Shown in pieces: positions 4,584-20,613 of a DNA stretch of 64,000 nt. Origin of the DNA: a virus. The position numbers and the translations under genes were made by a program. Position 1 is the stretch's first letter; each line of letters begins with the position of its first letter. The notes under the pieces were generated by a model. The model searched no databases, was not told where the DNA came from, and saw only the letters and a program-made list of their open reading frames with translations. Location of the stretch: the IMG/VR virus record IMGVR_UViG_3300022562_001969, positions 22,115-86,114 of that record, one strand, 5' to 3'.

Positions 4584-4595
4584 AAAGCGGGGGGG

Positions 4596-4613: not shown

Positions 4614-4615
4614 TC

Positions 4616-4687
4616 GACGATAGACGTTGATAATTGACAATTGACAATTGACAATTGACAATGGTCGTCCATCGTCCATCGTCGTCT
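4616..4687. repeat. Heptamer tracts: GACGAT(G/A) inverted pair around (TTGACAA)n
   Basis: Example of the dispersed heptamer families described in findings. Confidence 0.85.
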
Positions 4688-4704
4688 AATTGATTTCATG
4701 CGCG

Positions 4705-4733
4705 TTGACAGGCGGGCATAATATATGTATCAT
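4705..4733 (+). promoter_or_regulatory. Promoter giving a leaderless mRNA for the RHH protein
   Basis: TTGACA-17-TATCAT, ATG 7 nt after the -10, no SD. Confidence 0.7.
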
Positions 4734-4740
4734 ATGTAAT

Positions 4741-4911
4741 ATGACGACAGAACGCGAACCGGAAAAAATGAAACCGTATCCTGTAAATTTTCCGCCCAGC
4801 CTATGGCTGGCTGCCCGCCGTAAAGCGGGGGTGCGTTCGCTGGCCGGGATTATCCGGCGGCTGATAATAATGTGGTTAAGGGAGGAGGTTGTTCTGATGG
4901 ATGATGAATAG
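4741..4911 (+). CDS. Small ribbon-helix-helix (CopG/Arc-like) regulator
   Basis: 56 aa, PYPVNFPPSLWLAARRKAG-SLAGIIRRLI beta-alpha-alpha pattern. Confidence 0.65.
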   Translation: MTTEREPEKMKPYPVNFPPSLWLAARRKAGVRSLAGIIRRLIIMWLREEVVLMDDE

Positions 4912-4954
4912 ATAATAGATAATTGTCAATTGTCAATTATCAATTGTCAATTAT

Positions 4955-5061
4955 AAACAGAGGGCCATCCGGGTGCAACCGGTGGCCCCGCTTACATACT
5001 ATATCAGGGGCACAGCATGCAAGGTACTTTTTATTTTACCAACGATAAAAAAAATAGACAA
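4955..5061 (-). ncRNA. Putative cis-antisense RNA over the start of ORF 5017-5205
   Basis: TTGTCT-17-TAAAAT (5061-5033); terminator GGGCCACCGG...CCGGATGGCCCTCTGTTT. Confidence 0.55.
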
Positions 5062-5205
5062 ATGCCGCCGCCCCCTTTCAATTTTTTGTTAGTTTTCCCC
5101 ACAGGCGTGGGGGTGAACCGGGAGGAGCTATGGCAAAGCGTAGGGTTAAGTGCCCGCAGTGCGGGTATAGACACATCATCAACATTCCCAGTCGGAAAGC
5201 GATGA
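5017..5205 (+). CDS. Small leader ORF reading through a solitary CRISPR repeat
   Basis: 62 aa; has the antisense architecture; overlaps the next gene. Confidence 0.35.
   Translation: MQGTFYFTNDKKNRQMPPPPFNFLLVFPTGVGVNREELWQSVGLSARSAGIDTSSTFPVGKR
5092..5120 (+). CRISPR. Solitary type I-E repeat abutting an RBS
   Basis: GTTTTCCCCACAGGCGTGGGGGTGAACCG immediately followed by GGAGGAGCTATG. Confidence 0.92.
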
Positions 5206-5882
5206 CGGTGGGCGTGCGAGCCAAACGGATCACGGCCAACCAGTTTGAATACACCCTAAACGGTCCCGCCGAAATCTCGGATGACGCCAGATTTAGCACG
5301 GTGGCTGACGACCTGGTCCTGTCCGGCGCGTTTGGCGGCGCGTTGGGAGCCGTGGCGGGGGGCGCGGTGGCTGTCTTCGCGCCGGAGTACGCCCTGCACG
5401 GGGCCGGCGTGGGCATGAGCGCCGGGGTAGCCCTGGCCTGGGGCTGGTTGTGCGCGGAACATAACCAACGGCTGAAACGGGTGTTGCCCTGGTTCGTTGA
5501 GCAGCGGCAAAACTGGAAACGGCCCGAGCTGGGGGACGATGGCGAGATCAGGCTGACGGTAGATCATCTCCATCGGGACAGCTACAGCGAGCAAGGCCGC
5601 TCCATCGCCCTCCTGGGGACCCTACCGGTCGATGTGGAGCGCTTCCGGGCCTGGGCGCAAGGGGCCATCCGGGGCGATAGCCTGGCCATCAAACACTGGA
5701 CGGGAGCCGAACGGCCTTTCAGCCGGGATGAGTATGATCGCCTGCTGCTCAAAATGAGGGCGGCCAATATAGTGACCAATCTGCCGGGGAAGGGCAATAC
5801 CCTGACCAATCCCGGCAAGCACGCTCTGAAACGTATCCTGGCCGAGACCCCCTCCCCTACCCCGGCTGAGGAGCGTGCGTGA
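5130..5882 (+). CDS. Hypothetical membrane protein (Zn knuckle, 2 TM, C-terminal wHTH-like)
   Basis: CPQC motif, Gly/Ala-rich TM hairpin, GKGNTLTNPGK tail; strong RBS. Confidence 0.7.
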   Translation: MAKRRVKCPQCGYRHIINIPSRKAMTVGVRAKRITANQFEYTLNGPAEISDDARFSTVADDLVLSGAFGGALGAVAGGAVAVFAPEYALHGAGVGMSAGVALAWGWLCAEHNQRLKRVLPWFVEQRQNWKRPELGDDGEIRLTVDHLHRDSYSEQGRSIALLGTLPVDVERFRAWAQGAIRGDSLAIKHWTGAERPFSRDEYDRLLLKMRAANIVTNLPGKGNTLTNPGKHALKRILAETPSPTPAEERA

Positions 5883-6088
5883 TGCCAAAAAGCCCGGAAA
5901 ATGCACGCACGCACGTGCCCGCCCGCTCCAGATGGGGCTATAGCGTCTCCTATTGGCCCAGCAAAAGCGAATTCAGGATTGTTAACTATGGCCAGGGGGA
6001 GCTGATCAAGTCGTTGCTGTTTTGGTGGCGTTTGCGCCGCCATCCCTCATTTAAGAATGTACGATGGTCGTTAATCACTGATTGGTAA
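5879..6088 (+). CDS. Hypothetical protein
   Basis: GTGA overlap with the upstream gene. Confidence 0.45.
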   Translation: MMPKSPENARTHVPARSRWGYSVSYWPSKSEFRIVNYGQGELIKSLLFWWRLRRHPSFKNVRWSLITDW

Positions 6089-6094
6089 GGTGCT

Positions 6095-6910
6095 ATGACA
6101 AAACCAGACAATAAACAGAAACCTTTCATCATCCGCTATAGAGAATTTTGGACCAATGTCCAGGCGATGATCTTCTACCCCTTCCAGAATATCGGCCCTT
6201 TCATTGTGGCCGCTATGCCGGCGCTCTTCACCGGCCATAGCGTCTACACCTGGTACGCGGAAACCAGCGCCGCCTGGCTGGCCATGCTCATTAGCTGCGT
6301 GGTGGCTATTGCCATGGAGGCGATCAATATCAACGTGGTCCATACATCCCTCGATCTTTTTGAGCAAAAACAAAATGGCAAGGGTTGGCTGATGGCCCTT
6401 TTCTCCCTCATTGTAATGGCCCTGGTTTCGACCGTTATCGGCTTCAGTGAAGGGGACCTATCCCCCTTGATCAAGGGGTTGGCCGTCTCCAGCCCCTGGC
6501 TCACCGGCATTGTCTACCTGGCGGTCGGGATGGCGCAGGGCATCCACCAGGAGAAACAGCAAGCCGATTTGGACAGAAACGAGCGGCGTCAATCCGAGGC
6601 GGAACAACGTGAGTTCGAGCGACAATTGAAGCTAAAAGAGATAGACAAAAATCACGAATTACGATTAGCCAAAATTGAAGCGGCTAAAAGTGTTCAATCG
6701 AGTGTCAAGCCAACTGTTCAATCGAGTGTCAAGGGGTTGACACCTGAAGATGTCAAAAACGCTGTTTCCCAATCGGAAAAGCCGGTTAACATTACACAAT
6801 TGGCTAAAGATTTACAAGTAAGCCGGACAACACTTTACACTAAACTGAACGGTCTGGTAGATAGTGGGGAAATGATTAAAAATGGGAACGGTTACGAGGT
6901 AATCAAATAA
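6095..6910 (+). CDS. Multi-TM + coiled-coil + C-terminal HTH protein
   Basis: 4 TM segments, QEKQQADLDRNERRQ coil, NITQLAKDLQVSRTTLYTKL HTH. Confidence 0.8.
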   Translation: MTKPDNKQKPFIIRYREFWTNVQAMIFYPFQNIGPFIVAAMPALFTGHSVYTWYAETSAAWLAMLISCVVAIAMEAININVVHTSLDLFEQKQNGKGWLMALFSLIVMALVSTVIGFSEGDLSPLIKGLAVSSPWLTGIVYLAVGMAQGIHQEKQQADLDRNERRQSEAEQREFERQLKLKEIDKNHELRLAKIEAAKSVQSSVKPTVQSSVKGLTPEDVKNAVSQSEKPVNITQLAKDLQVSRTTLYTKLNGLVDSGEMIKNGNGYEVIK

Positions 6911-6924
6911 TTTATGAAGACCGC

Positions 6925-7059
6925 TTGGTCAAACGCTGTTTATGGTGCAATGGTTTAGGTTATGATACCTACCTGGGCCACACTTGCGATATGTGTAACG
7001 GCAAAGGTGGAAAATGGGAACGGGTGAGGGTACTAGTAGGTGAGGAAGTAATAGAATGA
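6925..7059 (+). CDS. Small DnaJ-type zinc-finger peptide (start uncertain); not in ORF track
   Basis: CLWCNGLG...CDMCNGKG; stop overlaps the next ATG (ATGA). Confidence 0.5.
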   Translation: MVKRCLWCNGLGYDTYLGHTCDMCNGKGGKWERVRVLVGEEVIE

Positions 7060-7547
7060 GAAAAATAATGCTCTTGGCATTAACTTTAATTATCTTGACA
7101 GGCTGCAATAGTAGCGTCAAAAACGCTAAAGCCGAAGCCATACGTCACCAGACTGACCGCGCAGACGATTGGCACATTGCCAGATTAGAGGAATCCGAGG
7201 CTTTAATGCCAGTCAGAATTATGGTCAAGGAAGTGCTTTGGTATACCGGTATGGTTAGCGGTATCCTTCTCCTTTTAGGTAGCGGCCTGGCCGGTGGCTG
7301 GTGGATGGTAGGCACATCAGTCAACAGGGTGAAATTTCACCGGGTCAGTCTGGATGTCCAGACAAGGCAGTATCCACTGTTGGTTTATGGCAACGGCCGG
7401 CGGGTCTTCAACCCGAATACCGGCGAACGGCTATTGTTGGCCGAAAACAGTGAAGCGTCTTTGACCCGGATCGAGGCCAGTACAAAGGTACAACTGGCGG
7501 GGATGCTACCGGATCGGATGATAATAGATGATCCTCATCATCACTAA
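7056..7547 (+). CDS. Putative lipoprotein with an extra TM segment
   Basis: MRKIMLLALTLIILTGC lipobox. Confidence 0.75.
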   Translation: MRKIMLLALTLIILTGCNSSVKNAKAEAIRHQTDRADDWHIARLEESEALMPVRIMVKEVLWYTGMVSGILLLLGSGLAGGWWMVGTSVNRVKFHRVSLDVQTRQYPLLVYGNGRRVFNPNTGERLLLAENSEASLTRIEASTKVQLAGMLPDRMIIDDPHHH

Positions 7548-8011
7548 CCCCACCAGGCGCAGCCGGTCATCGAGCGGCAGATTATCATGGTGGTGGGGCC
7601 GGGTCAGTCGCGGGGGGAGATGTGGCGGCAGTTAAGCGCGAGCTATGACGATAGACGACGGTAGACGATAGACGATAGACGGCCGGTGACCGTTTAGCTA
7701 TCGTCCATCGTCCATCGTCGAATGTTCGCGTGCGAACACTTACCTTAGATCTACTCTTCGCCGGTGGCGTAACCCAGTATCTGACCTATCGGCCGCCCGG
7801 TGACAATCTCCAGCAAAGTGTCAGTGTCATCCGGACCAACCTCATCAAATCGCCTCGCCAAATGCGATACAACCTGAAATACGGCTTCCTGGACGGCCAG
7901 GGCCTCGGCCGGGTCTATCTGGTCGGCCGGAGTGTTACCAGCACTCGGGCGGCCTGCCAATCAAATCCTTACCAGGTGGACGCGGATGAGGGGAGTTTTA
8001 TGGTTAGTGAG

Positions 8012-8419
8012 TCAAGGTTGTGAGGTAGGGTCTTGAGGACCTTGGATGATCATTTGTTCACCGCTCTCTGCTTCGGCCAGAGCGCGAAGCAACCGTTCCT
8101 GGAAACGCCGGCTATCTTCCTGGTCTACATCCGACTTTTTGAACATTTTTATATAAAACGCCTTGTAGGAACATTGCCAATGGCTACCAACATAATAAAC
8201 CCGGTGACGGCCAATTCTGATTTTGCGAACATTTTCCAAACCTGGCGGCATCCGCTTCAGCTTTTTATCGGAGGCGTCTAACGACCCCCTCCGCTCAGAG
8301 TTGGCCTCGTCGGCAAAACCAAAGAGCCTTTTTTCGATCATTGTCTTATCTCTGCTATTGGCGCGTTGAAGCTGGTCCAGTTGTTTATCGACCGTCTTAT
8401 TTATCGAGATCGAGCACAC
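8012..8419 (-). CDS. RelE/ParE-like toxin
   Basis: VDKQLDQL...LKRMPPGLENVRKIRIGRHRVYY. Confidence 0.65.
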   Translation of the reverse strand: MCSISINKTVDKQLDQLQRANSRDKTMIEKRLFGFADEANSERRGSLDASDKKLKRMPPGLENVRKIRIGRHRVYYVGSHWQCSYKAFYIKMFKKSDVDQEDSRRFQERLLRALAEAESGEQMIIQGPQDPTSQP

Positions 8420-8903
8420 GATACGTCTCCTGATCTTTAAAGGCTTTTTCTAATTGGATCAGTAAGGTATCATCCCGGATCAGGCGCTCATCTTCTAACG
8501 CATCAAGATCGATCCCCCGGATATTGAATTGAGCCATCTTCCGCAAGAAAGAAATGGCGCTATTGATCTGGGCGAAGGATAGATTAGGGAATTCTCCCTG
8601 TAATTCGTCATAATCTATAAGGCCGTCCAGGGCCTCCACAAATTCGTAGAGGGAGACTGATTGCCCGTCGTTCCCGACCAATACCGGGAGAAATCCAAGG
8701 TCTGGGTTCAGGTGAATATAGCCGCCGGTGGCTTTATTCCACGCCTCAAAAGAACTAAGGACGCTTGTACGGGTAGTTAGTTTCAGGCTGTCCCTTAGAA
8801 ACCGCTCAATCAGGTAATTTGTTTGGCCGGAGGGGCCACTATCCTGAACAATAAAAACAAGTCTGTTCTCAGCCTCGGTTGTTTTGACAATAGGATCATT
8901 CAT
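8397..8903 (-). CDS. DUF433-containing antitoxin-like protein
   Basis: NPDLGFLPVL...DELQGEFPNLSFAQINSAISF. Confidence 0.65.
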   Translation of the reverse strand: MNDPIVKTTEAENRLVFIVQDSGPSGQTNYLIERFLRDSLKLTTRTSVLSSFEAWNKATGGYIHLNPDLGFLPVLVGNDGQSVSLYEFVEALDGLIDYDELQGEFPNLSFAQINSAISFLRKMAQFNIRGIDLDALEDERLIRDDTLLIQLEKAFKDQETYRVLDLDK

Positions 8904-9225
8904 CAGCTGTTTGTCCTTCCAAAGCTTTACGCGCTTCAGGCGTTAATCGATTTTCCGGATTAGCCTCAATCTCTCCAAATAGTTGCTCATAGGCATTGAG
9001 GCTATTTGTTAAAGCATCGGCAACACGTTTGGCATGGGGGACGCTCAGATAAATTTTCGCCACGCCAACCGCCCCATCAGATTCTACATTCTTCTTTAAG
9101 CCAAAGTGCAAGACAATTTCTTCGGCGGTCACTTTTATTTCCATCAGGTCCGAGTAACACACCTTTTGATCAGGCGCATCAAGGATTTTTTCTTTCCTTT
9201 TCGCCACTTTGTCATCATCGGCCAT
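8896..9225 (-). CDS. DUF3467-like protein
   Basis: YSDLMEIKVTAEEIVLHFG...KIYLSVPHAKRVADALTNSLNAYEQLFGEI; GGAGGA RBS before ATG 9225. Confidence 0.75.
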   Translation of the reverse strand: MADDDKVAKRKEKILDAPDQKVCYSDLMEIKVTAEEIVLHFGLKKNVESDGAVGVAKIYLSVPHAKRVADALTNSLNAYEQLFGEIEANPENRLTPEARKALEGQTADE

Positions 9226-9435
9226 TATGGTCCTCCAAACTGGACTGTATTTTGTTCTGTTTATAACTATACTATAGCCGATCATTATCTGGCAAAAACG
9301 ATAAATCTTTCGTCGAATGTTCGCACGCGAACATTGACGATGGACGATTGACGACCGCTGTCTTTTAGTTGTGGCTGGTTTGGTGTCGGGTGGCTCTTTG
9401 GCAGTTTGGACGATGGACGATGGACGACCGCCGGT

Positions 9436-11085
9436 TTATATCTCCAACCGCCCTTGTGTTGGCCCTGCTCTTTCTTCTCTTTGGGCTTGTTTGAAGGTTC
9501 CATAGGCGGGCGGCATTTGTACACTTGCCCCCCCTAACAACGCCTCAATGGTAAGTATCTGAATTTTAGGGTATTTTTGGCCCCAGGCTACAGCCTCATA
9601 AAAACCGGCTGACACCGCCTCCTGGATCATCGGCTGCGTTGGTTCTTCCAGGGTGATAAAAACGCCGATAGCCGCCTTTTCCCGTTCAACCGTCCCAACC
9701 AGATCACGAATATCCCGGCTTGACACCTTGCCGCTCTTGACTTGCGCTAAAACCCGCTTAGGTTTGCCTTTTGCCGTATCAATAAAGGTGATAACCCCAT
9801 CGATCCCTTTATCCGCTCCTTTTTTGCCCTTTTTACTGCCCTGGGTCGCTTTGCCCGGTCTGGCCCTAACTAACGACAAGGCCCACCATTCAAACTGAAA
9901 GCGGTCTTGTTCTGCCAGAAAACGAGCAGAGCCTATTGTTTCAGGCTCGCCCTTGACTTCAAACGTTGTGTCCGGAAAGGCTTCTTGTAGACGATATTTT
10001 TGCAAGGCAATAGATAAATGGGTGATGTCAATACCTATCCACTTTCGGCCTAGTTTTTCAGCGGCTACTATCGCAGTACCACAACCGCAAAATGGATCAA
10101 GGACTACATCACCAGGGTTGCTACTGGCTGAAATGATACGTTCTAGTAAAGGTAAAGGTTTTTGTGTAGGATAACCCAGACGTTCAGCATCAGAACTTTG
10201 CAAAGGATTTATATCAGCCCAAATGTTTGTAATAATTGTTCCTTTTTGTTCGTTCAAAAAACGTTTAAGCGCAGGACGTTTACTAAAATCATAGGAACCA
10301 TCTTTGTGACGTGGATAATAAATGCGCCCTTCATCGTGTAACTTTTGCATGGTTTCAGGTTTATAACGCCAACCTTTAGCAGGATACGGAAAGCCTAGCC
10401 ATTCGTACATCATATTGGGTCTAGGATTTGGACTTGTCATATTATCCAAACGATATAAACCGCGTCCATTATTATCATCAAATCGGTAATTTTTTTGGAT
10501 ATATTCCAAATCATATGGTCCATATTGAACAATAAACAGGTTTTTTTTGGAACGTTTATAAAAAAGAATTATGTCAGCAATATCAGCAAATTTCGTCTTT
10601 GCGTCACTATGGGCTGACTGTCGTTTCCAAATAATTTCATTGCCAAAGTTCTCAGCCCCAAAAATAGTATCAAGGATGACCTTCAAATAATGGCTTGCTG
10701 TTGGGTCACAATGCAGATATAAGCTACCAGTAGGGTTCAATACCCGATGAAGTTCAACCAATCGACTAGCCATCATAACCAAATAAGCCATCATTTGGTT
10801 AGCGCCAATAAAATCACGCATGGCCCCAATCATCTTACTTATATGATCTGGTGATTCTGTTATCAATTCGTGATAGGTTTCCTCAGCGGCCGCGTTCCAG
10901 TGCCAAGTATCATCAAAAGCCGTTATCTGCGCCTGGCTATCTTGCCCACTTTCATCTTTGAATAAGACATTATAGCTGCGCTTTGAGTTAAAGGGGGGGT
11001 CAAGATAGACTAAATCAATACTTTCATCTGCTATGTAATCACGTAGAATTTGAAGGTTATCGCCATAATAAAGGGTATTTTTCAT
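9436..11085 (-). CDS. N4/N6 DNA methyltransferase fused to a C-terminal Mrr-like endonuclease domain
   Basis: DLVYLDPPF, VLDPFCGCGT, GADKGIDG...QVKSG; start MKNTLYYGDNL. Confidence 0.92.
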   Translation of the reverse strand: MKNTLYYGDNLQILRDYIADESIDLVYLDPPFNSKRSYNVLFKDESGQDSQAQITAFDDTWHWNAAAEETYHELITESPDHISKMIGAMRDFIGANQMMAYLVMMASRLVELHRVLNPTGSLYLHCDPTASHYLKVILDTIFGAENFGNEIIWKRQSAHSDAKTKFADIADIILFYKRSKKNLFIVQYGPYDLEYIQKNYRFDDNNGRGLYRLDNMTSPNPRPNMMYEWLGFPYPAKGWRYKPETMQKLHDEGRIYYPRHKDGSYDFSKRPALKRFLNEQKGTIITNIWADINPLQSSDAERLGYPTQKPLPLLERIISASSNPGDVVLDPFCGCGTAIVAAEKLGRKWIGIDITHLSIALQKYRLQEAFPDTTFEVKGEPETIGSARFLAEQDRFQFEWWALSLVRARPGKATQGSKKGKKGADKGIDGVITFIDTAKGKPKRVLAQVKSGKVSSRDIRDLVGTVEREKAAIGVFITLEEPTQPMIQEAVSAGFYEAVAWGQKYPKIQILTIEALLGGASVQMPPAYGTFKQAQREERAGPTQGRLEI

Positions 11086-11461
11086 TGGTTGACCACCTGA
11101 CCAGGCCAGGCTATAACAAATGGCAAGTGAACGGTTCACCATCATGCCCGTGGAGAATACCCTGATTTTATCCGAGTTTGGGATGACAGGCAAAAAAGAC
11201 GGTCGTCCATCGTCCATCGCCCATCGTCGGTTACTTGTTTTCAGGCCAAAAGGGTATATAATTGATTTAGCGACATTTTGGCTTGATAGTCTGATCAAGA
11301 TATAATAGTAAAAGAAGCTCCAACCTCTGACAGGCTATCTGTCCAAAGTGTCGCAACTTGAGAGGTCTGGGGCTTCTTTTTGGTGCTTCAGGATTTTCCG
11401 TGGGAACCACTATATCGCCATACAAGAAAAGTAAGCCAACTTTCAAAGATAGGTTCGCAAG

Positions 11462-13513
11462 ATGACTGAAAGCCGCCAACCTGGTAGGAATTTTAGGGAT
11501 GAATTACTTAAGATTTTGTCAGGGATGACCGCTTTGGATGACCCTGACAACCGATATCGGCTATTGGACAAGTTGCCACTAGAGGCAGTAGCAACCATAC
11601 GACGCAATTCTGCTAAGGGGACCGACCTATACAATATCGTTCAGGCTGCCGAAGGATGGGGACAATTGACCTCTGGAGAGTGGGCCTTGGTCGTTATCGC
11701 CCAAAACGCCCTATCTCTAGTTAAAGGAACCCACCCCGGTCGTCAGCTAGAGGCTCTTTTAGCTGAAAGGGTTATTCATCAGGCCAAGCCAGGCCGGCAG
11801 ATCCCCCTTGATCTGCCAGCGCGAGAGGAGAATTTTATAGACCGTAAGGACGAACTGGTATCTCTACTCACCGAATTACAACCAGGACGAGTAGTCACTT
11901 TGACTGGGCCGGGGGGCATGGGCAAGACTGCCCTGGCCGCGGAAGCCGTTGGCCAACTGGTGGTTGATCATAAGCCCCCTGAGCGTTTCCCGGATGGCAT
12001 CTTCTTTCATAGCTTTTACAACCAACCCCAAGCCGGTTTAGCCCTGGAAAGTCTGGCCCTGGCCTTTGGCGAGGAAGCCAGGCCAACGGCCCAGGTAGCG
12101 GCACAACGGGCGTTGAGCGGCCGGCAGGCCTTATTGGTGTTGGATGGCGCTGAAGATGCGGATGACTTGGCGGCCGTGTTAGCGGTGCGCGGGGGGTGTG
12201 GGGTTTTAATAACCAGCCGTAATCGGGGCGATGCGCCGGCCGTGTTGCAAGACCTGGCGCCCCTCAAACAGCAAGACGCCCTGGACTTATTACAACGCTG
12301 GGCTGAAGCGCAGCTTGATGACCAGGCGGCGGCCATTGCCATCTGCGAACTGGTGGGGAGGCTGCCGCTGGCGGTGCGTCTGGTAGGGCGGTATCTGCGT
12401 GAGACCGGGGAGACGGCCAGCGAGTATCTAGCCTGGTTACAAGAAACCCCGTTAGAGGCCCTGAACCAGGGGCGGCGACGCGAAGAAAGTATACCTGTCT
12501 TACTTGAGCGCAGTCTAAAGCAGGTCAGTGAGGCGGCGCGGCAAGTGTTGGCGGTGGCCGGCCGGCTGGCGCTGGCCCCGCTGCAACAAGAGGTGATGGG
12601 GGCCGCTTTGGCAGCCGAAGCGCGTGAGGTGAGACAGTGGTTAGGAGAATTGGTGCGCTATGGCTTGCTGAGCCGGGACAAAGGGCGTTATGCCATCAGT
12701 CACGCCCTCATTCACACCTACGCCAGTGAGCGGCTCAATGTGGCGGAGGAGATGGTCGAGCGGTTGGTGGCTTTCTATGTCGCTTTGGCTGAACACTTTA
12801 GCCAGCAAGGATTGGCAGGCTACCAGGCGCTTGATGGGGAGCGGCCTCACCTGCTGCGCTTGATTGCAGGCTGCGCGAAAGGAGATGATTGGCTGGGGGT
12901 TCGCAAGCTGGTCTGGGCCATTGATGGTTATTTGTCAATTCAGGGTCACGCCAGCGAACGACAAACTGCCCTAGCGACAGGGCTAACAGCCGCCCAACAA
13001 CTGGGCGACCGCCAAGATGAAGGGGCATTTTTAGGCAGCCTGGGGACCGCCTACTACGACCAGGGGGAGCTGGACAAAGCCATCGCCCATTCTCAGCAAG
13101 CCCTGGTCATCCACCGCGAGATTGGCTACCGCCAGGGGGAGGCTGCTGTTTTAGGCTACCTGGGAACCGCCTACAGCATCCAGGGGGAGCTGGCCAAAGG
13201 CATCGACCATTATCAGCAAGCCCTGGTCATCCACCGCGAGATTGGCTACCGCCAGGGGGAGGCTTATAATTTAGGCATCCTGGGTCTCGCCTACCGCGCC
13301 CAGGGGGAGAGGGCCAAAGCCAGAGAATACTTAGCCCAGGCGCTCACTATTTTTGAGGCGATCAAATCGCCCCAGGCAGACGCAATTCGTGAACAGTTGA
13401 CTATGCTGACTATGTTAGGCCGCCTCCATATACTCTTAGCAATGTGTCAGGCCATCTACGAGAAAGGATTGATGAGGCAGCTTTTGCCGCTTTTCAAAAG
13501 GCTTATTCACTAA
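11462..13513 (+). CDS. EAD-like domain + STAND (NB-ARC) NTPase + TPR protein
   Basis: GPGGMGKT Walker A, LLVLDG Walker B, GRLPLA motif, TPR repeats (HREIGYRQGEA); N-terminal helical EAD8-like segment. Confidence 0.88.
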   Translation: MTESRQPGRNFRDELLKILSGMTALDDPDNRYRLLDKLPLEAVATIRRNSAKGTDLYNIVQAAEGWGQLTSGEWALVVIAQNALSLVKGTHPGRQLEALLAERVIHQAKPGRQIPLDLPAREENFIDRKDELVSLLTELQPGRVVTLTGPGGMGKTALAAEAVGQLVVDHKPPERFPDGIFFHSFYNQPQAGLALESLALAFGEEARPTAQVAAQRALSGRQALLVLDGAEDADDLAAVLAVRGGCGVLITSRNRGDAPAVLQDLAPLKQQDALDLLQRWAEAQLDDQAAAIAICELVGRLPLAVRLVGRYLRETGETASEYLAWLQETPLEALNQGRRREESIPVLLERSLKQVSEAARQVLAVAGRLALAPLQQEVMGAALAAEAREVRQWLGELVRYGLLSRDKGRYAISHALIHTYASERLNVAEEMVERLVAFYVALAEHFSQQGLAGYQALDGERPHLLRLIAGCAKGDDWLGVRKLVWAIDGYLSIQGHASERQTALATGLTAAQQLGDRQDEGAFLGSLGTAYYDQGELDKAIAHSQQALVIHREIGYRQGEAAVLGYLGTAYSIQGELAKGIDHYQQALVIHREIGYRQGEAYNLGILGLAYRAQGERAKAREYLAQALTIFEAIKSPQADAIREQLTMLTMLGRLHILLAMCQAIYEKGLMRQLLPLFKRLIH

Positions 13514-13800
13514 AGACAATGCGTGAGGCAGCAACTCAGTTTCCGGCAATGACTGAGGAGACGTTTCGGGACGCTGTAAAGGCGTTCATAGATGAGCAAG
13601 TGCCAAAGAACTATATATTTTCGTTTAAGCAACGATTGATGTGGTTAGGTCAACTTCTTGATGAGTGGCCAGATGAACCAGTCTCAGGATCGTTAAAAAA
13701 GGAAACTTCCGCTGTGAGATCTATAATCAAGCCAAAATCGCTTAAAGAGCGGAAGAAGATTAAAGCGCAAAGGAAGTGGTGGCAGTTTTGGAAGAAATGA
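13444..13800 (+). CDS. Hypothetical protein with KWWQFWKK tail
   Basis: Amphipathic C-terminal motif; start uncertain. Confidence 0.5.
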   Translation: MSGHLRERIDEAAFAAFQKAYSLKTMREAATQFPAMTEETFRDAVKAFIDEQVPKNYIFSFKQRLMWLGQLLDEWPDEPVSGSLKKETSAVRSIIKPKSLKERKKIKAQRKWWQFWKK

Positions 13801-13852
13801 GGTTGATTTTTAGCTTTGGACGATGGACGACCGGCGGCGACTTAAGACTGCG

Positions 13853-13981
13853 GCCGCCCATCGTCCATCGTCCATCGTCGCCAAGGCGAAGCGACCACCG
13901 ACGACACAACACCGCCGCCCATCGTCCATCGTCCATCGTCGCCAAGGCGAAGCGACCACCGACGACACAACACCGCCGCCC
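13853..13981. repeat. 61-bp tandem repeat (about 2.1 copies) built on TCGTCCA heptamers
   Basis: Period 61 visible; inverted relative of the 15900-16120 units. Confidence 0.9.
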
Positions 13982-13993
13982 GCCGTCCATCGT

Positions 13994-14935
13994 CTATCGT
14001 CCATCGTCCGTCGTCAGCCCCCGGTACGCCCGGGCCCGGGCCTCATCCCGGCCGCGCAGATAGACCGAAGTCGTGGCGATGTCCGCATGGCCCAATTGGT
14101 CGCGCACCTTGTCCAGGGAGACGCCGGCTTCGAGGGCCAGCAAAGCCGAGGTGTGGCGCAGGGCGTGAAAGTAAGCCCGGGGCAAGCCGGCCGCCCTGGC
14201 CCGGCGCTTGAACAGTTGGCTCACCCCGGAGGCGGTCAGGCCGGGCCCCGGGCGGCCCCAGCGCCAGGCCGGGAAGACATGAGCGGGCCGGTGGCCACCC
14301 TCGGCCAGATAACGTTGCCAGGCCCACAAATCCCCTTTGACCGCCAAATTAAAATAGACCACCCGCCCCCGGCGCGTCTTGGCCGTCTCCGCCGCCACCT
14401 CGGCGGCCAGCTCGGCCAGGCGCAGTTGCTCCCAGCGCAGGGCGGCCACTTCCCCGGCCCGGCAGCCGGTGACCAGGGCAAAATGGACCAGGGCCAGGTC
14501 GCGCAGCTCACGCCCCTCGCCGGCGGCGGCCGCCCGGCGCAACTGGGCCAGCAGGCGCTCCACTTCGGCCCGGCTGAGGGCCACCGGCGGCAGGTGGGGC
14601 CGGGGCGGCAAGAGGCGCAATTGGGCAATTTGCCGGGTCGGGTTGCGGTTGGCCTCAATGATCTCTAATTGTTCCAAAAAGTTGAAAAATGCGCGCAGGT
14701 GGGTATAATAGGTGCGCACCGTCACCTCTCCACCGGCGGTGGAGTCTATCCAGCCCATTACCTGACCGGCCGTGACCGGCCAGGCCGGGCCGATGTAGTC
14801 GGCGAAGCGGCTTAAGATATTGGTGTAGTTCTGTAGCGTCTTCGGCCGCCACGAACGTCTCTTGAGAGTGATAAAACCTTTAATGTGCCCTCCCAGAATG
14901 GTATCCGGGAGGGACACAGAAGGCGGCGTAGCCAT
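13994..14935 (-). CDS. Tyrosine recombinase/integrase (XerC/D-like)
   Basis: TGCRAGEV, HALRH, LGHADIATTSVY catalytic motifs. Confidence 0.95.
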   Translation of the reverse strand: MATPPSVSLPDTILGGHIKGFITLKRRSWRPKTLQNYTNILSRFADYIGPAWPVTAGQVMGWIDSTAGGEVTVRTYYTHLRAFFNFLEQLEIIEANRNPTRQIAQLRLLPPRPHLPPVALSRAEVERLLAQLRRAAAAGEGRELRDLALVHFALVTGCRAGEVAALRWEQLRLAELAAEVAAETAKTRRGRVVYFNLAVKGDLWAWQRYLAEGGHRPAHVFPAWRWGRPGPGLTASGVSQLFKRRARAAGLPRAYFHALRHTSALLALEAGVSLDKVRDQLGHADIATTSVYLRGRDEARARAYRGLTTDDGR

Positions 14936-14957
14936 ACGATTGGAGGCTCCGGAGAGA

Positions 14958-15038
14958 CTTCGGAGTCAAAACCTTTAGGTTTTTCTTCGGAGTCGAAACC
15001 TTTAGGTTTTTCTTCGGAGTCAAAACCTTTAGGTTTTT
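14958..15038. repeat. Three tandem 27-bp repeats upstream of the integrase
   Basis: CTTCGGAGTC(A/G)AAACCTTTAGGTTTTT at 14958, 14985 and 15012. Confidence 0.95.
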
Positions 15039-15079
15039 CAAGCCTGAAGGCTTGGACTCCTCTATTCCGGAGTCGAAAC

Positions 15080-15108
15080 CGGTTCACCCCCACGTCTGTG
15101 GGGAATAC
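15080..15108 (-). CRISPR. Solitary type I-E repeat upstream of the integrase
   Basis: GTATTCCCCACAGACGTGGGGGTGAACCG on the minus strand. Confidence 0.92.
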
Positions 15109-15179
15109 GGGCTCCGGTTAATGCCCAAACCTAAAGGCTTGGACTCCTTTGAGCCTTTGAGCCTTTGAGCCTAAAATAA

Positions 15180-15212
15180 AAACCTGACCGGTTTTTGAAA
15201 CCAGTCAGGTTT
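15180..15212. repeat. REP-like hairpin or terminator
   Basis: AAACCTGAC-CGGTTTTTGAAACCA-GTCAGGTTT; (CCTTTGAG)3 adjacent at 15146-15172. Confidence 0.55.
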
Positions 15213-15221
15213 GTTACCTCG

Positions 15222-15614
15222 CTACGCCGCCGTGCGTTGCTGGTATTCCACCAGCATCTCGACCGGATCGCGGCCGGCCACGCGGCCCAGGGCCTCTTCC
15301 CAGTCGCCGCTGTGGAGGATGGCGTTGAGGGATTCGACGGCCTGCACCAGGGCCACCTCAAGGTCCAGCAGGGCGACGATGTCCACCGCCCCACTCGCCT
15401 CTCTGGTAGGGTTGGCGGCGAAGTCAGTCAGGGCCGCAATGGCCTCGACCAGTCTCGCCAGCCCGGGCAACTCAGCGCCGGGGGCTACTTCTGCTTCCGG
15501 CGCCAGCTCGCCCAACGCCAGGCTGGCCGCCAGCAGACCGGTTGCCGCCAGAAATCCGCGACGGTCTATTTGGTTGTTGGTTTGGGGGTGTGCTAAAATA
15601 CGTTCAGTTCTCAT
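15222..15614 (-). CDS. Hypothetical protein with twin-arginine-like signal
   Basis: DRRGFLAATGLLAASLAL; GAGGAG RBS; N-terminus ILAHPQTNNQI resembles HEPN copy 1 ILAQPQTNPQI. Confidence 0.7.
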   Translation of the reverse strand: MRTERILAHPQTNNQIDRRGFLAATGLLAASLALGELAPEAEVAPGAELPGLARLVEAIAALTDFAANPTREASGAVDIVALLDLEVALVQAVESLNAILHSGDWEEALGRVAGRDPVEMLVEYQQRTAA

Positions 15615-15675
15615 GGTAAGCTCCTCTTACTGTGTGAATTAGGGCCGGTTTGATGTTTCAGCATCAGGCCGGCTC
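15591..15675 (+). ncRNA. Putative cis-antisense RNA over the start of 15222-15614
   Basis: TGcTAAAAT 15591-15599; hairpin GCCGGTTTGATG...CATCAGGCCGGC. Confidence 0.55.
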
Positions 15676-15799
15676 GTTCGTTTAAAGTTGACCACATTAT
15701 ATGCCCAAACTCAGCATTAGTCAAATCCGGCTCAGGATTTATTTTTTTACGACGCTTGCGGCTGGCCGCCGGGCGACGTATACTAATAGTAGCTCTCAT
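15611..15799 (-). CDS. Small basic protein
   Basis: AAGGAG RBS, ATGA overlap with the next gene. Confidence 0.5.
   Translation of the reverse strand: MRATISIRRPAASRKRRKKINPEPDLTNAEFGHIMWSTLNERAGLMLKHQTGPNSHSKRSLP
15696..15724 (-). promoter_or_regulatory. Sigma-70 promoter
   Basis: TTGACT-17-TATAAT. Confidence 0.8.
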
Positions 15800-15868
15800 G
15801 GTATCTCCTTACTGTGAGAGTATGGTTTCGCCTCGTTTTTTAGCCCGCGAGGCGAAGCCTGTTTTTTT
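15756..15868 (+). ncRNA. Putative cis-antisense RNA over the start of 15611-15799
   Basis: TTGCGG-17-TATACT; terminator GGTTTCGCCTCG...CGAGGCGAAGCCTGTTTTTTT. Confidence 0.6.
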
Positions 15869-16160
15869 GGACGATAGACGATGGACGATGGACGGCGGGC
15901 GGCGGTTTGACGGGCGGCGGTCGTCCATCGTCGGTCGTCGCTTCGCCTTGACGACGATAGACGATGGACGGCGGTTTGACGGTCGTCGGTCGTCCATCGT
16001 CGGTCGTCACTTTGCCTTGGCGACGCTAGACGATAGACGATAGACCGCGGTTTGACGGTCGTCTATCGTCCATCGTCGGTCGTCACTTCGCCTTGGCGAC
16101 GCTAGACGATAGACGATGGATGGCTGTATGGCATCGTCGGTCGTCGGTCGTCGGTCGTCG
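15869..16160. repeat. About three imperfect ~70-bp units built on GACGAT(G/A)/TCGTCCA heptamers
   Basis: CGGTTTGACGG...CTTCGCCTTG(G)CGACG repeated. Confidence 0.85.
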
Positions 16161-16263
16161 TTCCGCCAGGCGTCAACTTGTTTGGATAGCATACCTCTAC
16201 GTAGGTCTCCCGTTAGGTTTCCGTTTTGCCGGTTTGGTAAAACGGCCTTGCTGGGGGGGGATT

Positions 16264-16293
16264 ATCGTATCATAGGTGGGGGGGATCTGTCAA
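16264..16293 (-). promoter_or_regulatory. Leftward promoter of the integrase-side operon
   Basis: TTGACA-18-TACGAT with extended TG; C7 run in the spacer. Confidence 0.65.
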
Positions 16294-16381
16294 GCGGTTT
16301 TAAGCTTCGCGACGATGGACGATAGACGACCGGCGACTAACGACGACCGTCTCTTTTGTTTATTTGTTTATTTGTTTATTT

Positions 16382-16740
16382 ATTTCAATCCACGCCCCCC
16401 GTGAGGGGAGCGACTTCGGTGAAGGAAAAAATTCCTTAACCGATGGGGTTTCAATCCACGCCCCCCGCGAGGGGAGCGACATAAAAACAGGCTTCGCTTT
16501 GCGGGCTATTTCAATCCACGCCCCCCGCGAGGGGAGCGACTTGGCCGGTCAAGGTGATCCGCCAACCGGTTGCGGTTTCAATCCACGCCCCCCGCGAGGG
16601 GAGCGACTTGCTGAAACGTTCGTGGTAGACTGTTTCAGTTTGTTTCAATCCACGCCCCCCACAAGGGGAGCGACGCGACCAGCTCATCACTATCCAATTC
16701 AAAAAGCGTTTCAATCCACGCCCCCCACAAGGGGAGCGAC
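16382..16740 (-). CRISPR. Type I-C CRISPR array: 6 repeats (33 nt), 5 spacers (33, 27, 34, 34, 33 nt)
   Basis: GTCGCTCCCCT(CGC/TGT/CAC)GGGGGGCGTGGATTGAAA(C/T); repeats start at 16382, 16448, 16508, 16575, 16642, 16708. Confidence 0.96.
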
Positions 16741-16910
16741 GGCAACATCTGGGTATACCCAGATTATACATAATATATATTGTGGCGCCTTTTTTGTCAA
16801 TCGGACAACCGGCTCAATATTGCTCGCTAAATGTTCTTTTTTGGGGTGGTTAAGGTACAAAATAGGCGCGAACCCTCCGGGCAATGGCTGGGCGCTTGGG
16901 GTTCGCAAAC
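16741..16910 (-). promoter_or_regulatory. Type I-C leader with promoter
   Basis: GCGAACCCC...GGGTTCGCGC inverted leader motif 16866-16907; TTGACA-17-TATATT 16800-16772. Confidence 0.85.
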
Positions 16911-16927
16911 CCAGATTAAAGGATGAT

Positions 16928-17010
16928 CGGTTCACCCCCACGCCTGTGGGGAATACTCGTCCATCGTCCATCGTCGCGAAGCGGTTCACCCCCCCGCCTG
17001 TGGGGAATAC
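16928..17010 (-). CRISPR. Type I-E mini-array: 2 repeats, one 25-nt spacer
   Basis: GTATTCCCCACAGGCG(T/G)GGGGGTGAACCG at 16928-16956 and 16982-17010. Confidence 0.95.
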
Positions 17011-17197
17011 GCTCCAAAACGTTATAAAGTTTTAATGTTACAACCGTTCGCTAGCTTAGAACACGGATATGGGGAGGGTAACGGATTTTCGACCTGGCTA
17101 TAAGTAATCCGTTACCTTCTGCCAATCCGCTGTTCTCAAGCTAACCGTGCAATAGCAGCAACGCCCAAACGGTCGTCCATCGTCCATCGTCAGCCGT

Positions 17198-17503
17198 CTA
17201 TCGTCCACCGTCCATCGTCACCCCCGGGCAGCCTTCGACAAGCTCAGGCTGCTGCGGTCGTCCATCGTCGGTCGTCCATCGTCGGTCGTCCATCGTCGCC
17301 CCCCGGGCGGCCAGCGCCGTATTAAGCGCCTTGAGTTCCGCCTCAAGATCACCTATTTTTTTTTGCAAAGCGGTTTCGTTGGCGGCCATCTTGGCCAACC
17401 GCTTCTCCAGGGTAATATTCAGGAGAAGCGCCTGGCTTAATAGTGAGCCCCAGCGTTGGCCGAGGGTATCGACCAGCTCCAAAATTTGCTGTTCGGTCAT
17501 CAT
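17198..17503 (-). CDS. Small coiled-coil protein (C-terminus encoded by repeats)
   Basis: ATGA overlap with the upstream gene. Confidence 0.55.
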   Translation of the reverse strand: MMTEQQILELVDTLGQRWGSLLSQALLLNITLEKRLAKMAANETALQKKIGDLEAELKALNTALAARGATMDDRRWTTDDGRPQQPELVEGCPGVTMDGGR

Positions 17504-17766
17504 GGTCTCTCGAACAGGAATTGGTCAATGTTCGTACCGTGGCCGCCCGCTAACCAGATATTCAGTAGGTCATTGATTGATGAATATGCGTTGTCATACT
17601 GCGTTTTATTAACCGCTCGCCCGTCAAAATCCCCGCTGACCAATGCAATATAATTATTATGAGTATGCCTGCTATACAATCCTTCTAAGTCGGTCAAAAT
17701 CTTTCTAAATTCTTGTAATTTCTGACCGGTTTCTTCGATGTGACTGTTAAACGTATTTATTGCCAT
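17500..17766 (-). CDS. Hypothetical protein
   Basis: Follows the tail fibre in the operon. Confidence 0.65.
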   Translation of the reverse strand: MAINTFNSHIEETGQKLQEFRKILTDLEGLYSRHTHNNYIALVSGDFDGRAVNKTQYDNAYSSINDLLNIWLAGGHGTNIDQFLFERP

Positions 17767-17770
17767 ATTA

Positions 17771-19453
17771 TTATCCTAAAATTCCCGCTGTCTGAAAATC
17801 GTTAATGAGTGTTCCCAGCACGTCGGCTATTTCGGCCAATGTCGTACTATCCGCGTCGAATGACCTGTCCGTGGTGACATTGGTCGGCGTGTAGGTTTGC
17901 AAGCCGCCGTCTTTGGCAATGATAACCGTATTGCCGGAGCTAAAAACTACTTTTTGCTGAGTGGTTCCCCCCCCATCATCCTCAGCGTATAGACGAGTGG
18001 TGTTTGCCCCGCCTGCGCCCGGCGCAGTCATCTCTGTAAATTCAATATCTCCCGCCCCCAGGTCGATTTTGGCTGATGGTGAGGCTACGCCAACGCCAAT
18101 ATTAGCGGCGGCGGTAATGACCAACCTGTTACCACTGCCCCCTACCGTAAACCGCATCTCATCAGCCGAGTGGTTGTAGACAAACTGACCAACATTGGCG
18201 CTACTGGCGTCGCCAAAATCTATAATGGAGTTTGCCGCCGCGCCCCCTATCAGGGTTAGGCGGACATTGTCTGTAGTATTGACGTTGTTTTGGACAAAAA
18301 TCCCGTTACCCGTTGGGATGGAGGGCAACGAGCCGGCTCCGCCAGTAACGTGCAATTTGTATTGCGGGCTGCTTTCACTGATGCCGACATTGCCACCCGG
18401 CAACACCCGTAATCTTTCGACATTGCCGCCGCTATTATTGGGACTGGTTTTAATGAAAAATGACATCGGCACGGTATTGGCGGCCACACTGCCCTCTATC
18501 TCGGCCCCAAACTGGGCGGCCAGATTATAATCGGTGCCGTCGTGGGCCTCAAAATTGAACAGCCCTACAGTGTCTCCAGCCTGAACTGCCGCCCCCCCGG
18601 CTCTGGCTCGCAAAAATGCGGCCTGGCTGCCACGCCCGGCCGTATCCGATTGTCGCGACAACACGATAGCGCGGACGTTGGCCACGTCCGCATCCTGCAC
18701 GGACAGTTGCGCCTGAGTGACCGTACCTTGAAACGTATATTGCGTATCGGCCGACCTGATACTAACAGCCTCATTAGTCACATCGACATTAAACACCGGC
18801 GCGCCGCCATCAGCGTCCAATACCTGGAAAAAGTCCGTACTATCAGTCGTTGGTTGTAGCTTTATCTGGCCGGTAGAGGTAGGTTTAATGGTTAAGTCGT
18901 GGCTGGCGTCTACCGCCAGCGTGGCGTAGACCGAATTATCCGTATGGGTGAGCCGTAGTTGCGGGCCGGCGTTATTGAGGATGTCCACCTGATTGCGAGG
19001 CGTGGCCACGCCAACGCCGAAAAAGCCGTCACTGCCCCGCAAAAACATATCGCCATTGAAATTGATGTCCACATCCCCTGAGCCGGGGCCAAGGGTAATC
19101 AAATCCTGGGTGGTCTCTGTCAATTTCAGCATCGACAGGCCGCCAGCGGTAAACTCTATCTCATCGTCAGCGAAACAAATTTTGGTGTCCGGGTCGCCAG
19201 TGTGAATGATGCAATCGGCCAGGGTCAGATTACCCACCCCACTCAGATCGCCGGTGATAATCAGGTTTCCGGCCAGGGTGACATCGCCGTTATTGTCAAC
19301 GCTCACAGCCGGATCAACCGTCCCATCCGGCGAGACCATGACGCTATGAGGCGGCGCTTCCAGAGTTTTCAATTGGTTCAGATCGGTAATTAGCCGGATC
19401 ATCCCCTGATTGCTTTGCTGGCCAATCACCTCGTTGAAATTTGGATCAGGCAT
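17771..19453 (-). CDS. Tail fibre / receptor-binding protein
   Basis: GNVGISESSPQYKLHV and NIGVGVASPSAKIDL fibre repeats; position. Confidence 0.85.
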   Translation of the reverse strand: MPDPNFNEVIGQQSNQGMIRLITDLNQLKTLEAPPHSVMVSPDGTVDPAVSVDNNGDVTLAGNLIITGDLSGVGNLTLADCIIHTGDPDTKICFADDEIEFTAGGLSMLKLTETTQDLITLGPGSGDVDINFNGDMFLRGSDGFFGVGVATPRNQVDILNNAGPQLRLTHTDNSVYATLAVDASHDLTIKPTSTGQIKLQPTTDSTDFFQVLDADGGAPVFNVDVTNEAVSIRSADTQYTFQGTVTQAQLSVQDADVANVRAIVLSRQSDTAGRGSQAAFLRARAGGAAVQAGDTVGLFNFEAHDGTDYNLAAQFGAEIEGSVAANTVPMSFFIKTSPNNSGGNVERLRVLPGGNVGISESSPQYKLHVTGGAGSLPSIPTGNGIFVQNNVNTTDNVRLTLIGGAAANSIIDFGDASSANVGQFVYNHSADEMRFTVGGSGNRLVITAAANIGVGVASPSAKIDLGAGDIEFTEMTAPGAGGANTTRLYAEDDGGGTTQQKVVFSSGNTVIIAKDGGLQTYTPTNVTTDRSFDADSTTLAEIADVLGTLINDFQTAGILG

Positions 19454-20613
19454 TATATATCCTCAAACTCCATCCGGATTTCATCCACCTCCTCGCCATC
19501 CGGGTTGACGCTGGTGGAGATGCTGCGCAATTGTTTGTTCACCCGCACCCCGGAGCGATTGGACTGCGCAGTCACAAAATCGGCCAGAAAATAATCCCGG
19601 TATAACACCTGCGCCCCCCGGCGCGGGTTGAAGTTGAATTGCTCTTTGGAGACCAGCTCCTTCAGCTTGGCCTTGGCCGACCCTACCAGGTCGGCCGCCG
19701 TGTCACTCTGCACCGAGTTGACCACGCTCTCACGCTGGGCGATACCCGACACCGCCAGGCTGTCCGTGTCGGTGGCCACCTCTACCCGGCGATCAGAGCC
19801 ATAGCCCTGCCCCAGGGCGACCACCACATTGGCTTCGTTGTAGCGGCTGCGGCTGAGGCGCTCCGACTGAATGTTGCCCAATTGCGCGCTGAAAATGAGA
19901 GGGGCGTTGCCGGCGGCGTTTAGACCACCGCTGCCAATGTGCAGCCCCTCGGTGGTCCGGTCAATGCCCAATTGACCGACCTCAAATTGAAACTGAAACC
20001 CACCCAGATAAGTCACCCGGAAATCGACCTTGTCGGTGATGGCGGCGTTATTCTCGCGGGTGAAATCGCTAATCTCGCGGATGGTGGCCATTAAATTCTT
20101 TCTGGCCTTGGAGCCGGACCAGGTTCCCCCCAGGATCGGATCCGCCGCCAGAGTGACCAAATTCTGGGCCGGATAGTCGCGGCTGGCCGTCCCACCGGCC
20201 CCCACGTTTTCATACACGTATGAGAGCATGACGCTGGAAGCGGCCCCGCTTTTGTTGGCCTGGGCGCTGTCGGTCGGATATAAAATCCAGGTTTTTTCTA
20301 ATAGCTCCTCCATCGCCGGGCCGTAGGAAGTGTAAATCTGCTGGCCGTTTGGCGAGAGTGAATCGCTAAAAGTTTTGTGGATACCGTTGAAGATGTTGAG
20401 CCAGTCAATGCCAAAGGTGTTATCCTGAAACCAAATCCGGACAATGGAGTCGTCCTGAATTTCGCCAATGCGACTATCAAACCCGGATAAGGTGAGCTGG
20501 TATTCCCCCTTGGCCGAGATACGTTGGGTGAAAGAGAGCGAGCGGAAATCCTCAAAAATGGCCACAGTGGAGCCGGCCGAGTTTTCAATATCCACCCGAT
20601 AAAGAACCGGCAT
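19453..20613 (-). CDS. Minor tail / hub protein (ReqiPepy6 Gp37-like)
   Basis: NVVVALGQGYG...LYRDYFLADFVT; position after Dit. Confidence 0.8.
   Translation of the reverse strand: MPVLYRVDIENSAGSTVAIFEDFRSLSFTQRISAKGEYQLTLSGFDSRIGEIQDDSIVRIWFQDNTFGIDWLNIFNGIHKTFSDSLSPNGQQIYTSYGPAMEELLEKTWILYPTDSAQANKSGAASSVMLSYVYENVGAGGTASRDYPAQNLVTLAADPILGGTWSGSKARKNLMATIREISDFTRENNAAITDKVDFRVTYLGGFQFQFEVGQLGIDRTTEGLHIGSGGLNAAGNAPLIFSAQLGNIQSERLSRSRYNEANVVVALGQGYGSDRRVEVATDTDSLAVSGIAQRESVVNSVQSDTAADLVGSAKAKLKELVSKEQFNFNPRRGAQVLYRDYFLADFVTAQSNRSGVRVNKQLRSISTSVNPDGEEVDEIRMEFEDI

Follow-up and report, generated by a model that had tools for sequence, protein, structure and literature searches.

Several kinds of CRISPR sequences carried by viruses have been described. 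Mini-arrays of viruses target related viruses, an instance of inter-virus conflict (Medvedeva et al., 2019, PMC6858448; reviewed in PMC11656645), and solitary repeat units of phages act as RNA anti-CRISPRs, Racr (Camara-Wilpert et al., 2023, PMC10651486). Phage RNAs resembling CRISPR RNAs (crRNAs), the Cracrs, have I-E spacers of 24 and 21 nucleotides (nt), reside in some cases in arrays, and mimic host CreR and CreA, silencing promoters of cas or toxin genes of the host (Liu et al., bioRxiv 10.1101/2024.10.29.618823). Here, we analyze the CRISPR locus of a phage, found within a 64,000-nt stretch of DNA (the window), bases 22115–86114 of the IMG/VR record IMGVR_UViG_3300022562_001969; all coordinates below are those of the window. 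The locus comprises an I-C array, an I-E mini-array, and a solitary I-E repeat near a tyrosine integrase gene (positions 13994–17010), and elsewhere in the window, a second solitary I-E repeat and an array and a solitary copy of a 37-nt repeat. An earlier note on this DNA interpreted the locus as a switch, in which truncated guides loaded into two host Cascades control the integrase operon of the phage.

Like the virus-borne arrays, the locus resides in a cas-less virus, has repeats identical or nearly identical to those of hosts, keeps a leader with a promoter, and contains spacers that appear to resemble genomes of the phage's own lineage. Unlike them, it has three repeat families, perfect targets in competitor phages were not found for it, and it includes two spacers, each 7 nt too short, with matches in the carrier next to a protospacer-adjacent motif (PAM). 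As with Racrs, the solitary I-E repeats with hairpins (at 15080 and 5092) and the solitary 37-nt repeat (at 1743) all lie in the accessory region of the phage, but no acr gene was recognized among the neighboring genes, and the repeats are candidate inhibitors. Shared with Cracrs and with the host CreR/CreA RNAs of CreTA are the spacer-like segments of 25 and 27 nt, which lie in arrays between repeat-like sequences, and for which binding without efficient cleavage would be expected; however, known Cracrs are partly complementary to host cas or toxin promoters, whereas for the segments considered here, near-complete matches were detected in the phage's own DNA only. In CreTA, the guide is encoded in or beside the cas locus that it serves and represses a promoter at a PAM-flanked target without cleavage; here, a 24/25 match with a PAM lies 9 bp upstream of a predicted −35 box, the guide is neither within nor next to a cas locus, and the element has no cas gene. 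In the literature on virus-borne arrays, Racrs, and Cracrs compared here, control of a phage's genes by a guide from the same phage is not described.

By our best reading, the locus belongs to known kinds of virus-borne CRISPR elements, namely arrays, mini-arrays, and solitary repeats, and is an unusually rich example of them. The sequence shows how the arrays are built, which sites the spacers match, that the leader has a homologue in a host, and that cas genes are absent; expression, use of host Cas proteins, and competitive and decoy functions are inferred. Specifically, we consider it somewhat more probable than not (approximately 0.55) that this is an accessory region of a cas-less temperate siphovirus, in which captured pieces of host CRISPR systems run on host Cas proteins as weapons or decoys. 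What the earlier note had observed is largely real, but its regulatory reading relies on a geometry that fails and on one artefactual input; it also missed that the I-E spacer is made of 7-nt units (heptads) of the phage and that I-C spacers S1 and S3 resemble the phage itself.

CRISPR arrays and solitary repeats of the phage

The absence of cas genes, noticed earlier in the window, extends to the whole 86-kb genome: no match was obtained in searches of it with the Cas1, Cas5, and Cas3-HD families, nor in tblastn searches with six I-C Cas proteins from a Chloroflexota locus. The phage is cas-less, as far as searched, and therefore any activity of its repeats must use host Cas proteins.

The I-C array, the I-E mini-array, and the solitary repeat at 15080 are read on the minus strand, in the canonical orientation. 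The I-C array (16382–16740, minus strand) is formed by six repeats of 33 bp and five spacers, S1 (16415–16447, 33 nt), S2 (16481–16507, 27 nt), S3 (16541–16574), S4 (16608–16641), and S5 (16675–16707). In the minus-strand reading, the repeat is GTCGC...ATTGAAAC and folds into a stem of 8 bp with an 11-nt tail behind it; two repeat variants are mixed in the array, and its terminal repeat is degenerate. Exact copies of this repeat were found in 31 genome loci of Chloroflexota and Bacillota. In Anaerolineae Ch10, it stands in the same orientation behind cas5d-cas8c-cas7-cas4-cas1-cas2, and this order of the cas operon and the array confirms both the I-C subtype and the orientation. The leader of the phage array (16741–16927, minus strand, 187 bp) is homologous to the Ch10 leader, located between cas2 and the array, and to a viral locus (L011); the alignment with Ch10 takes in the GCGAACC...GGTTCGC palindrome and the leader–repeat junction. 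The promoter scan identified a promoter-like TTGACA-17-TATATT sequence (11/12) in this leader, at 16800–16772.

Spacers adjacent to this I-C repeat in 25 genome loci (n = 268) are 30–42 nt long, with the modal length of 34 nt and none shorter than 30 nt; none of these 268 host spacers matches the phage. No exact 20-mer from S3, S4, or S5 was found in IMG/VR. A solitary I-C repeat is present in an unrelated 78.8-kb viral contig (IMGVR_UViG_3300050335_000039, L013:4830–4930), where it is flanked on both sides by an identical 33-nt sequence and looks like a spacer-like insertion with a duplicated 33-nt pseudo-repeat.

The I-E mini-array, also on the minus strand, consists of two 29-bp repeats and one spacer. 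The repeat that is first in the direction of transcription (16982–17010) is degenerate, with one stem mismatch and a fold register shifted relative to the other copies, while the Cas6e-type hairpin of the second one (16928–16956) is intact. The 25-nt spacer between them (16957–16981), whose crRNA sense starts with CTTCGCG..., comprises heptad units and a unique 7-nt 5′ part. No leader homology was observed in the region upstream of the mini-array. Two solitary I-E repeats are located at 15080–15108 (minus strand), inside a CCGGAG/CTCCGG inverted repeat and 23-bp direct repeats (15039–15061 and 15126–15148), and at 5092–5120 (plus strand). All I-E copies have the Cas6e-type hairpin, except for the stem-mismatched first repeat of the mini-array. 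The repeat at 5092–5120 abuts the ribosome-binding site and the start codon of the open reading frame (ORF) 5130–5882, and cutting by Cas6e at this repeat would yield an mRNA of that ORF starting with an 8-nt handle.

In contigs from the probable source sample, I-E arrays are present whose repeat is near-identical and whose spacers measure approximately 32 nt; four I-E spacers from sequencing runs X1 and X2 have no match to the phage. The I-E repeat with three mismatches is present in a Chloroflexi genome that also carries the I-C repeat; searches for Cse1 and Csd1 in it yielded no match, which is uninformative, as this genome is incomplete and the Csd1 control was silent everywhere. In another viral contig (IMGVR_UViG_3300048059_000001, L014:3422–3511), an I-E mini-array combines a spacer of the normal 32 nt with a repeat variant identical to the solitary one at 15080.

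The third family is represented by an array of nine identical 37-nt repeats and eight spacers of 35–38 nt (3364–3984, minus strand) and by a solitary repeat (1743–1779) located 1.6 kb from it. This repeat was not found in five candidate hosts. The eight spacers, used as a control, do not match the phage itself.

Self-matching spacers, heptad tracts, and the proposed function

Both short spacers match the phage itself, as the earlier note had claimed, and each target lies within 0.7 kb of its guide. The I-E spacer matches 16305–16329 (plus strand) at 24 of its 25 positions, the only mismatch being at position 20, so that the seed is intact; with the AAG PAM at 16302–16304, the protospacer spans 16302–16329 and lies 9 bp upstream of the predicted −35 box. 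The S2 spacer matches 15842–15868 (plus strand) at 24 of 27 positions, with mismatches at positions 8, 10, and 26; including the TTT at 15839–15841, this site spans 15839–15868 and is a hairpin in the 5′ region of ORF62. As the maxima for shuffled spacers are 19/25 (I-E) and 20/27 (S2), and both real matches exceed all 60 shuffles, neither is due to chance. The I-E spacer has further 24/25 matches at 13861 and 13922, lacking a PAM and mismatched in the seed; only the site at 16305 combines the PAM and the seed.

Two full-length I-C spacers resemble the phage as well. S1 has an imperfect protospacer at 60778–60810 (plus strand, 30/33) inside ORF 60058–61224, with mismatches at positions 2–4 and ACC at the PAM position. 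S3 partially matches 58887–58920 (plus strand, 24/34, with 15 of the first 16 positions identical), in frame inside the gene 58464–58943, a paralogue of ORF 4020–4541. By score alone the S3 match is borderline, just above the shuffle maximum of 23; its differences follow a codon pattern, including the synonymous pairs CTT/CTG and CGG/AGG. The resemblance of S1 and S3 to coding genes of the phage thus points to an origin of the spacers from related phages rather than to designed regulators: the I-C spacers appear to be drawn from phages of this lineage, with the carrier copies changed at the PAM and the seed. Virus-borne arrays directed against relatives are known to show this pattern (PMC6858448, PMC11656645).

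Tracts of the heptad CGTCCAT/ATGGACG and its variants ATAGACG and CGTCGGT occur at at least 27 places in the phage, e.g., at 3991–4004, 13862–14011, 15874–16155, 17174–17293, 59551–59578, 61197–61224, and 63116–63136. Approximately 20 of the tracts are at gene starts, gene ends, or junctions, including junctions of gene cassettes, and one starts 3 nt past the last 37-nt repeat. None of five candidate Chloroflexota hosts showed such heptads across its genome. Repeats of ATGGACG in the coding strand provide an ATG in all three frames, and ORF 60058–61224 starts within one of them; similarly, repeats of ATAGACG provide a TAG in all three frames. The tracts may serve as frame-independent punctuation or as recombination linkers of gene cassettes.

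The host-type I-E spacers are approximately 32 nt long and none of the 268 I-C spacers is shorter than 30 nt, and thus both short spacers are abnormal. Each is 7 nt, that is, one heptad, below the usual length (25 = 32 − 7 and 27 = 34 − 7). The I-E spacer is built of heptad units of the phage, and since these are 7-nt tandem units, slippage that removed one of them would simply account for its length. With a 7-nt gap placed at the point where its target enters a heptad tract, S2 fits at 25 of 27 positions, which is suggestive only.

The earlier note had regarded binding without cleavage by shortened guides as established, which holds only in part. In the I-B system of Haloarcula, interference falls sharply at 28 bp, and repression alone is observed at 24 bp (PMC10989794); E. 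coli I-E crRNAs shortened by 6 nt fail to protect against M13 and do not lower transformation, but plasmids are still cleared (PMC5159557). Given these data on shortened spacers in E. coli I-E and Haloarcula I-B, the short guides may, by analogy, bind with little cleavage, although a total lack of cleavage is not established for I-E or I-C.

Combining these data, we propose the following functions for the captured CRISPR parts. The I-C array, with its host-type leader and promoter kept, would most likely be a weapon against related superinfecting phages, since its spacers appear to come from phages of its own lineage, and the carrier's versions of the targets would be protected by the changes in the PAM and the seed. 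The I-E mini-array and the solitary I-E repeats would most likely be Racr- or Cracr-like repeat mimics that occupy or misdirect host Cas6e and Cascade. The short spacers would be ordinary spacers of 32 and 34 nt, derived from heptad-flanked phage DNA and shortened by 7 nt each, and this loss would weaken interference against the carrier itself. Residual binding of Cascade at 16305–16329 and 15842–15868 would then be a side effect, not a designed integrase switch. As for the capture itself, a single crossover between a host spacer and a phage protospacer was considered and rejected, because the I-E spacer and its protospacer are mutually inverted.

Several observations weigh against these functions. 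A related phage with perfect protospacers was not found in IMG/VR, metagenome contigs, or GenBank phages, and hence targeting of competitors is deduced from imperfect self-homology alone. The I-E site retains a perfect AAG PAM and seed, contrary to what escape from self-targeting would produce. The best matches of both short spacers are at most 0.7 kb away, on the downstream side of array transcription, which is poorly explained by chance. Two deletions within spacers would have occurred among six spacers, though such deletions are rare. Finally, the promoter scan did not find a promoter directly before the I-E mini-array.

It is unlikely, in our estimate, that the CRISPR parts are functionless cargo, that is, decaying fragments of host arrays picked up by recombination in a heptad-bounded mosaic. 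Such an origin is consistent with the two repeat variants mixed in the I-C array and its degenerate terminal repeat, with the truncated spacers, and with the heptad tracts at cassette junctions, including the one right after the last 37-nt repeat. However, the leader, the promoter, and the repeat hairpins are well preserved, and that a single phage combines three different repeat families with three solitary repeats argues for selection.

Target region and regulatory readings

The promoter-like site and the integrase named in the earlier note are both present. The former, TTGACA-18-(TG)TACGAT at 16264–16293 (minus strand), was recovered by the promoter scan; the latter, at 13994–14935 (minus strand), belongs to PF00589 (E 2.8e-22) and phrog_1. 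A transcript starting from 16293 would first cross a block of approximately 300 nt (15868–16170), comprising three units of 69–76 bp with inverted heptad tracts and very strongly folded as RNA (fold z-score −7.5). It is followed by ORF62 (15611–15799, minus strand), a small basic ORF with a strong ribosome-binding site, for which no homologues were found; the 3′ half of ORF62 holds the promoter of the next gene, a second promoter-like site at 15724–15696 (minus strand, promoter scan). That gene, ORF130 (15222–15614, minus strand), encodes a protein with a Tat-signal-like N-terminus and has a paralogue elsewhere in the phage (66% identity); the search of a protein atlas with ORF130 yielded only Tat-signal-like leads. 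ORF130, its promoter, and the hairpin behind the promoter are duplicated near the second integrase (34% identity), and neither the start of ORF62 nor the S2 target is part of this duplication. A strong intrinsic terminator with a 15-bp stem and a T run (15180–15212, minus strand) ends the ORF130 unit. Between this terminator and the integrase lie the solitary repeat and three tandem repeats of 27 bp (14958–15039), the latter directly upstream of the integrase start.

Thus, as the terminator (15212–15180) and the second promoter (15724–15696) split it, the leftward region is, judging by these predicted signals, at least three transcription units and not one operon. The claim that an integrase operon is controlled at three places is not supported, given the terminator, the separate promoters, and the integrase standing apart. 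As claimed, the I-E site is adjacent to the promoter, but it is upstream of the −35 box and does not overlap the promoter. The S2 target is approximately 400 nt downstream of the promoter at 16293 and has no promoter of its own; located there and paired with the non-template strand, the S2 guide could at most be a roadblock. As to the third proposed input, the seed of the solitary repeat, the 12 nt following the repeat at 15080 do recur once exactly, at 14988–14999, behind an AAG. However, the 27-bp unit (TTC-GGAGTCGAAACC) has a fourth, degenerate copy that makes up the flank of the solitary repeat, and this match is therefore a by-product of the tandem repeat.

A 5′ module consisting of a promoter, a hairpin, a ribosome-binding site CACAGTAAGGAG, and approximately the first 17 codons (..ILA[HQ]PQTN.QI) is common to unrelated ORFs; it was observed at 4435–4600, 15575–15730, and 58330–58470 of the window and in L063:8610–9200.

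The spacer matches could still have a regulatory role, with the 25-nt and 27-nt guides acting as crRNA-like regulators of the phage's own DNA that park host Cascades without cleavage. Cascades would then sit beside the promoter at 16293 and on the leader of ORF62 and ORF130, and expression of these accessory genes would report the activity of both host CRISPR systems. We assign a low probability to this reading.

The model of the earlier note, in which the short guides load host I-E and I-C Cascades, bind the phage's own promoter and leader without cleavage by Cas3, and couple the leftward genes to the CRISPR state of the host, is quite unlikely. It accounts for the PAM-flanked matches, which are real (24/25 and 24/27), for the intact seed and AAG PAM of the I-E site beside a promoter-like site, and for the pairing of both guides with the non-template strand of leftward transcription; both guides are abnormally short, and short spacers, a typical trait of viral Cracr RNAs (bioRxiv 10.1101/2024.10.29.618823), give repression with no cleavage in I-B (PMC10989794). 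Against it are the three predicted transcription units with the integrase behind a terminator, the positions of the I-E site upstream of the −35 box and of the S2 site some 400 nt downstream with no own promoter, the origin of the solitary-repeat seed from a tandem repeat, and the destruction of plasmids by the shortened E. coli I-E crRNAs (PMC5159557). In addition, S1 and S3 indicate that the array spacers derive from the phage lineage anyway.

We consider it improbable that the guides are anti-defence RNAs of the Cracr type, mimicking host CreR/CreA and sending Cascade to host cas or toxin promoters, with the self-matches being incidental. In favor of this, the phage has short spacers flanked by partly degenerate repeats, the I-E spacers of published Cracrs measure 24 and 21 nt, and I-C Cracr arrays exist (bioRxiv 10.1101/2024.10.29.618823). 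However, in a weak test, S2 (with up to three mismatches) was not found in 401 sampled Chloroflexota genomes or in approximately 1 Mb of loci that include host cas-array loci; the self-matches far exceed what chance would give, and the I-E spacer consists of phage heptads, which were not seen as a feature of the five candidate hosts.

For the solitary repeat at 15080–15108 only, the role of an attachment-site core, directing insertion of the prophage into a host I-E CRISPR repeat, is very improbable: the repeat does lie 145 bp upstream of the integrase start, centrally in a 250-bp non-coding stretch of direct repeats (27 bp × 3, 8 bp × 3, and a 23-bp pair), with a flanking 6-bp inverted repeat and a layout like that of arm-type sites around an attP core, but no attL/attR junction or prophage was found, solitary repeats of phages have an established alternative role as Racrs, and the second solitary repeat (5092) is not beside the second integrase.

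Genome context and implications

The record is a complete virus of 86,114 bp with direct terminal repeats and the GC content of 55%, and it encodes siphovirus tail proteins, terminase, ribonucleotide reductase, and two tyrosine integrases. A scan of positions 1–20000 against Rfam yielded no family at the gathering score. The best source of DNA for this phage is a marine sediment metagenome. No usable relatives were obtained by searching IMG/VR with the tail fibre and the integrase or with the heptad pattern, nor among GenBank phages, and the integrase search of metagenome contigs yielded no usable relative, the best identity being 31%. A second sediment metagenome, run X2, contains low-depth pieces that share 92–100% identity with the tail genes, the integrase, ORF130, and ORF62; the one covering ORF62 ends 10 nt before the S2 target. 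An X2 contig joining 11182 to 17257 was disregarded as a probable alignment artefact, since one of its sides consists only of heptads.

A defence-type island (9436–13513) adjoins the integrase. It contains a fusion of an N6/N4 DNA methylase with an Mrr-like nuclease domain (9436–11298) and a STAND NTPase (11462–13513) that has EAD8 at its N-terminus as well as an NB-ARC/NACHT domain and TPR repeats.

The heptad tracts punctuating the gene cassettes may merit a study of their own. More generally, phages with CRISPR parts and no cas genes show how viruses exploit host immunity, and the phage analyzed here stands out by its richness, combining three repeat families, a host-like I-C leader, solitary repeats, and two shortened, PAM-flanked, self-matching spacers. 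If the short guides were only disarmed self-targeting spacers, they would show how a phage-borne array avoids killing its carrier. If, on the other hand, they were self-directed regulators, they would form a self-directed counterpart of Cracrs and CreTA, and crRNA-like RNAs of phages, so far known as silencers of host promoters, would gain a second role in sensing the CRISPR activity of the host.

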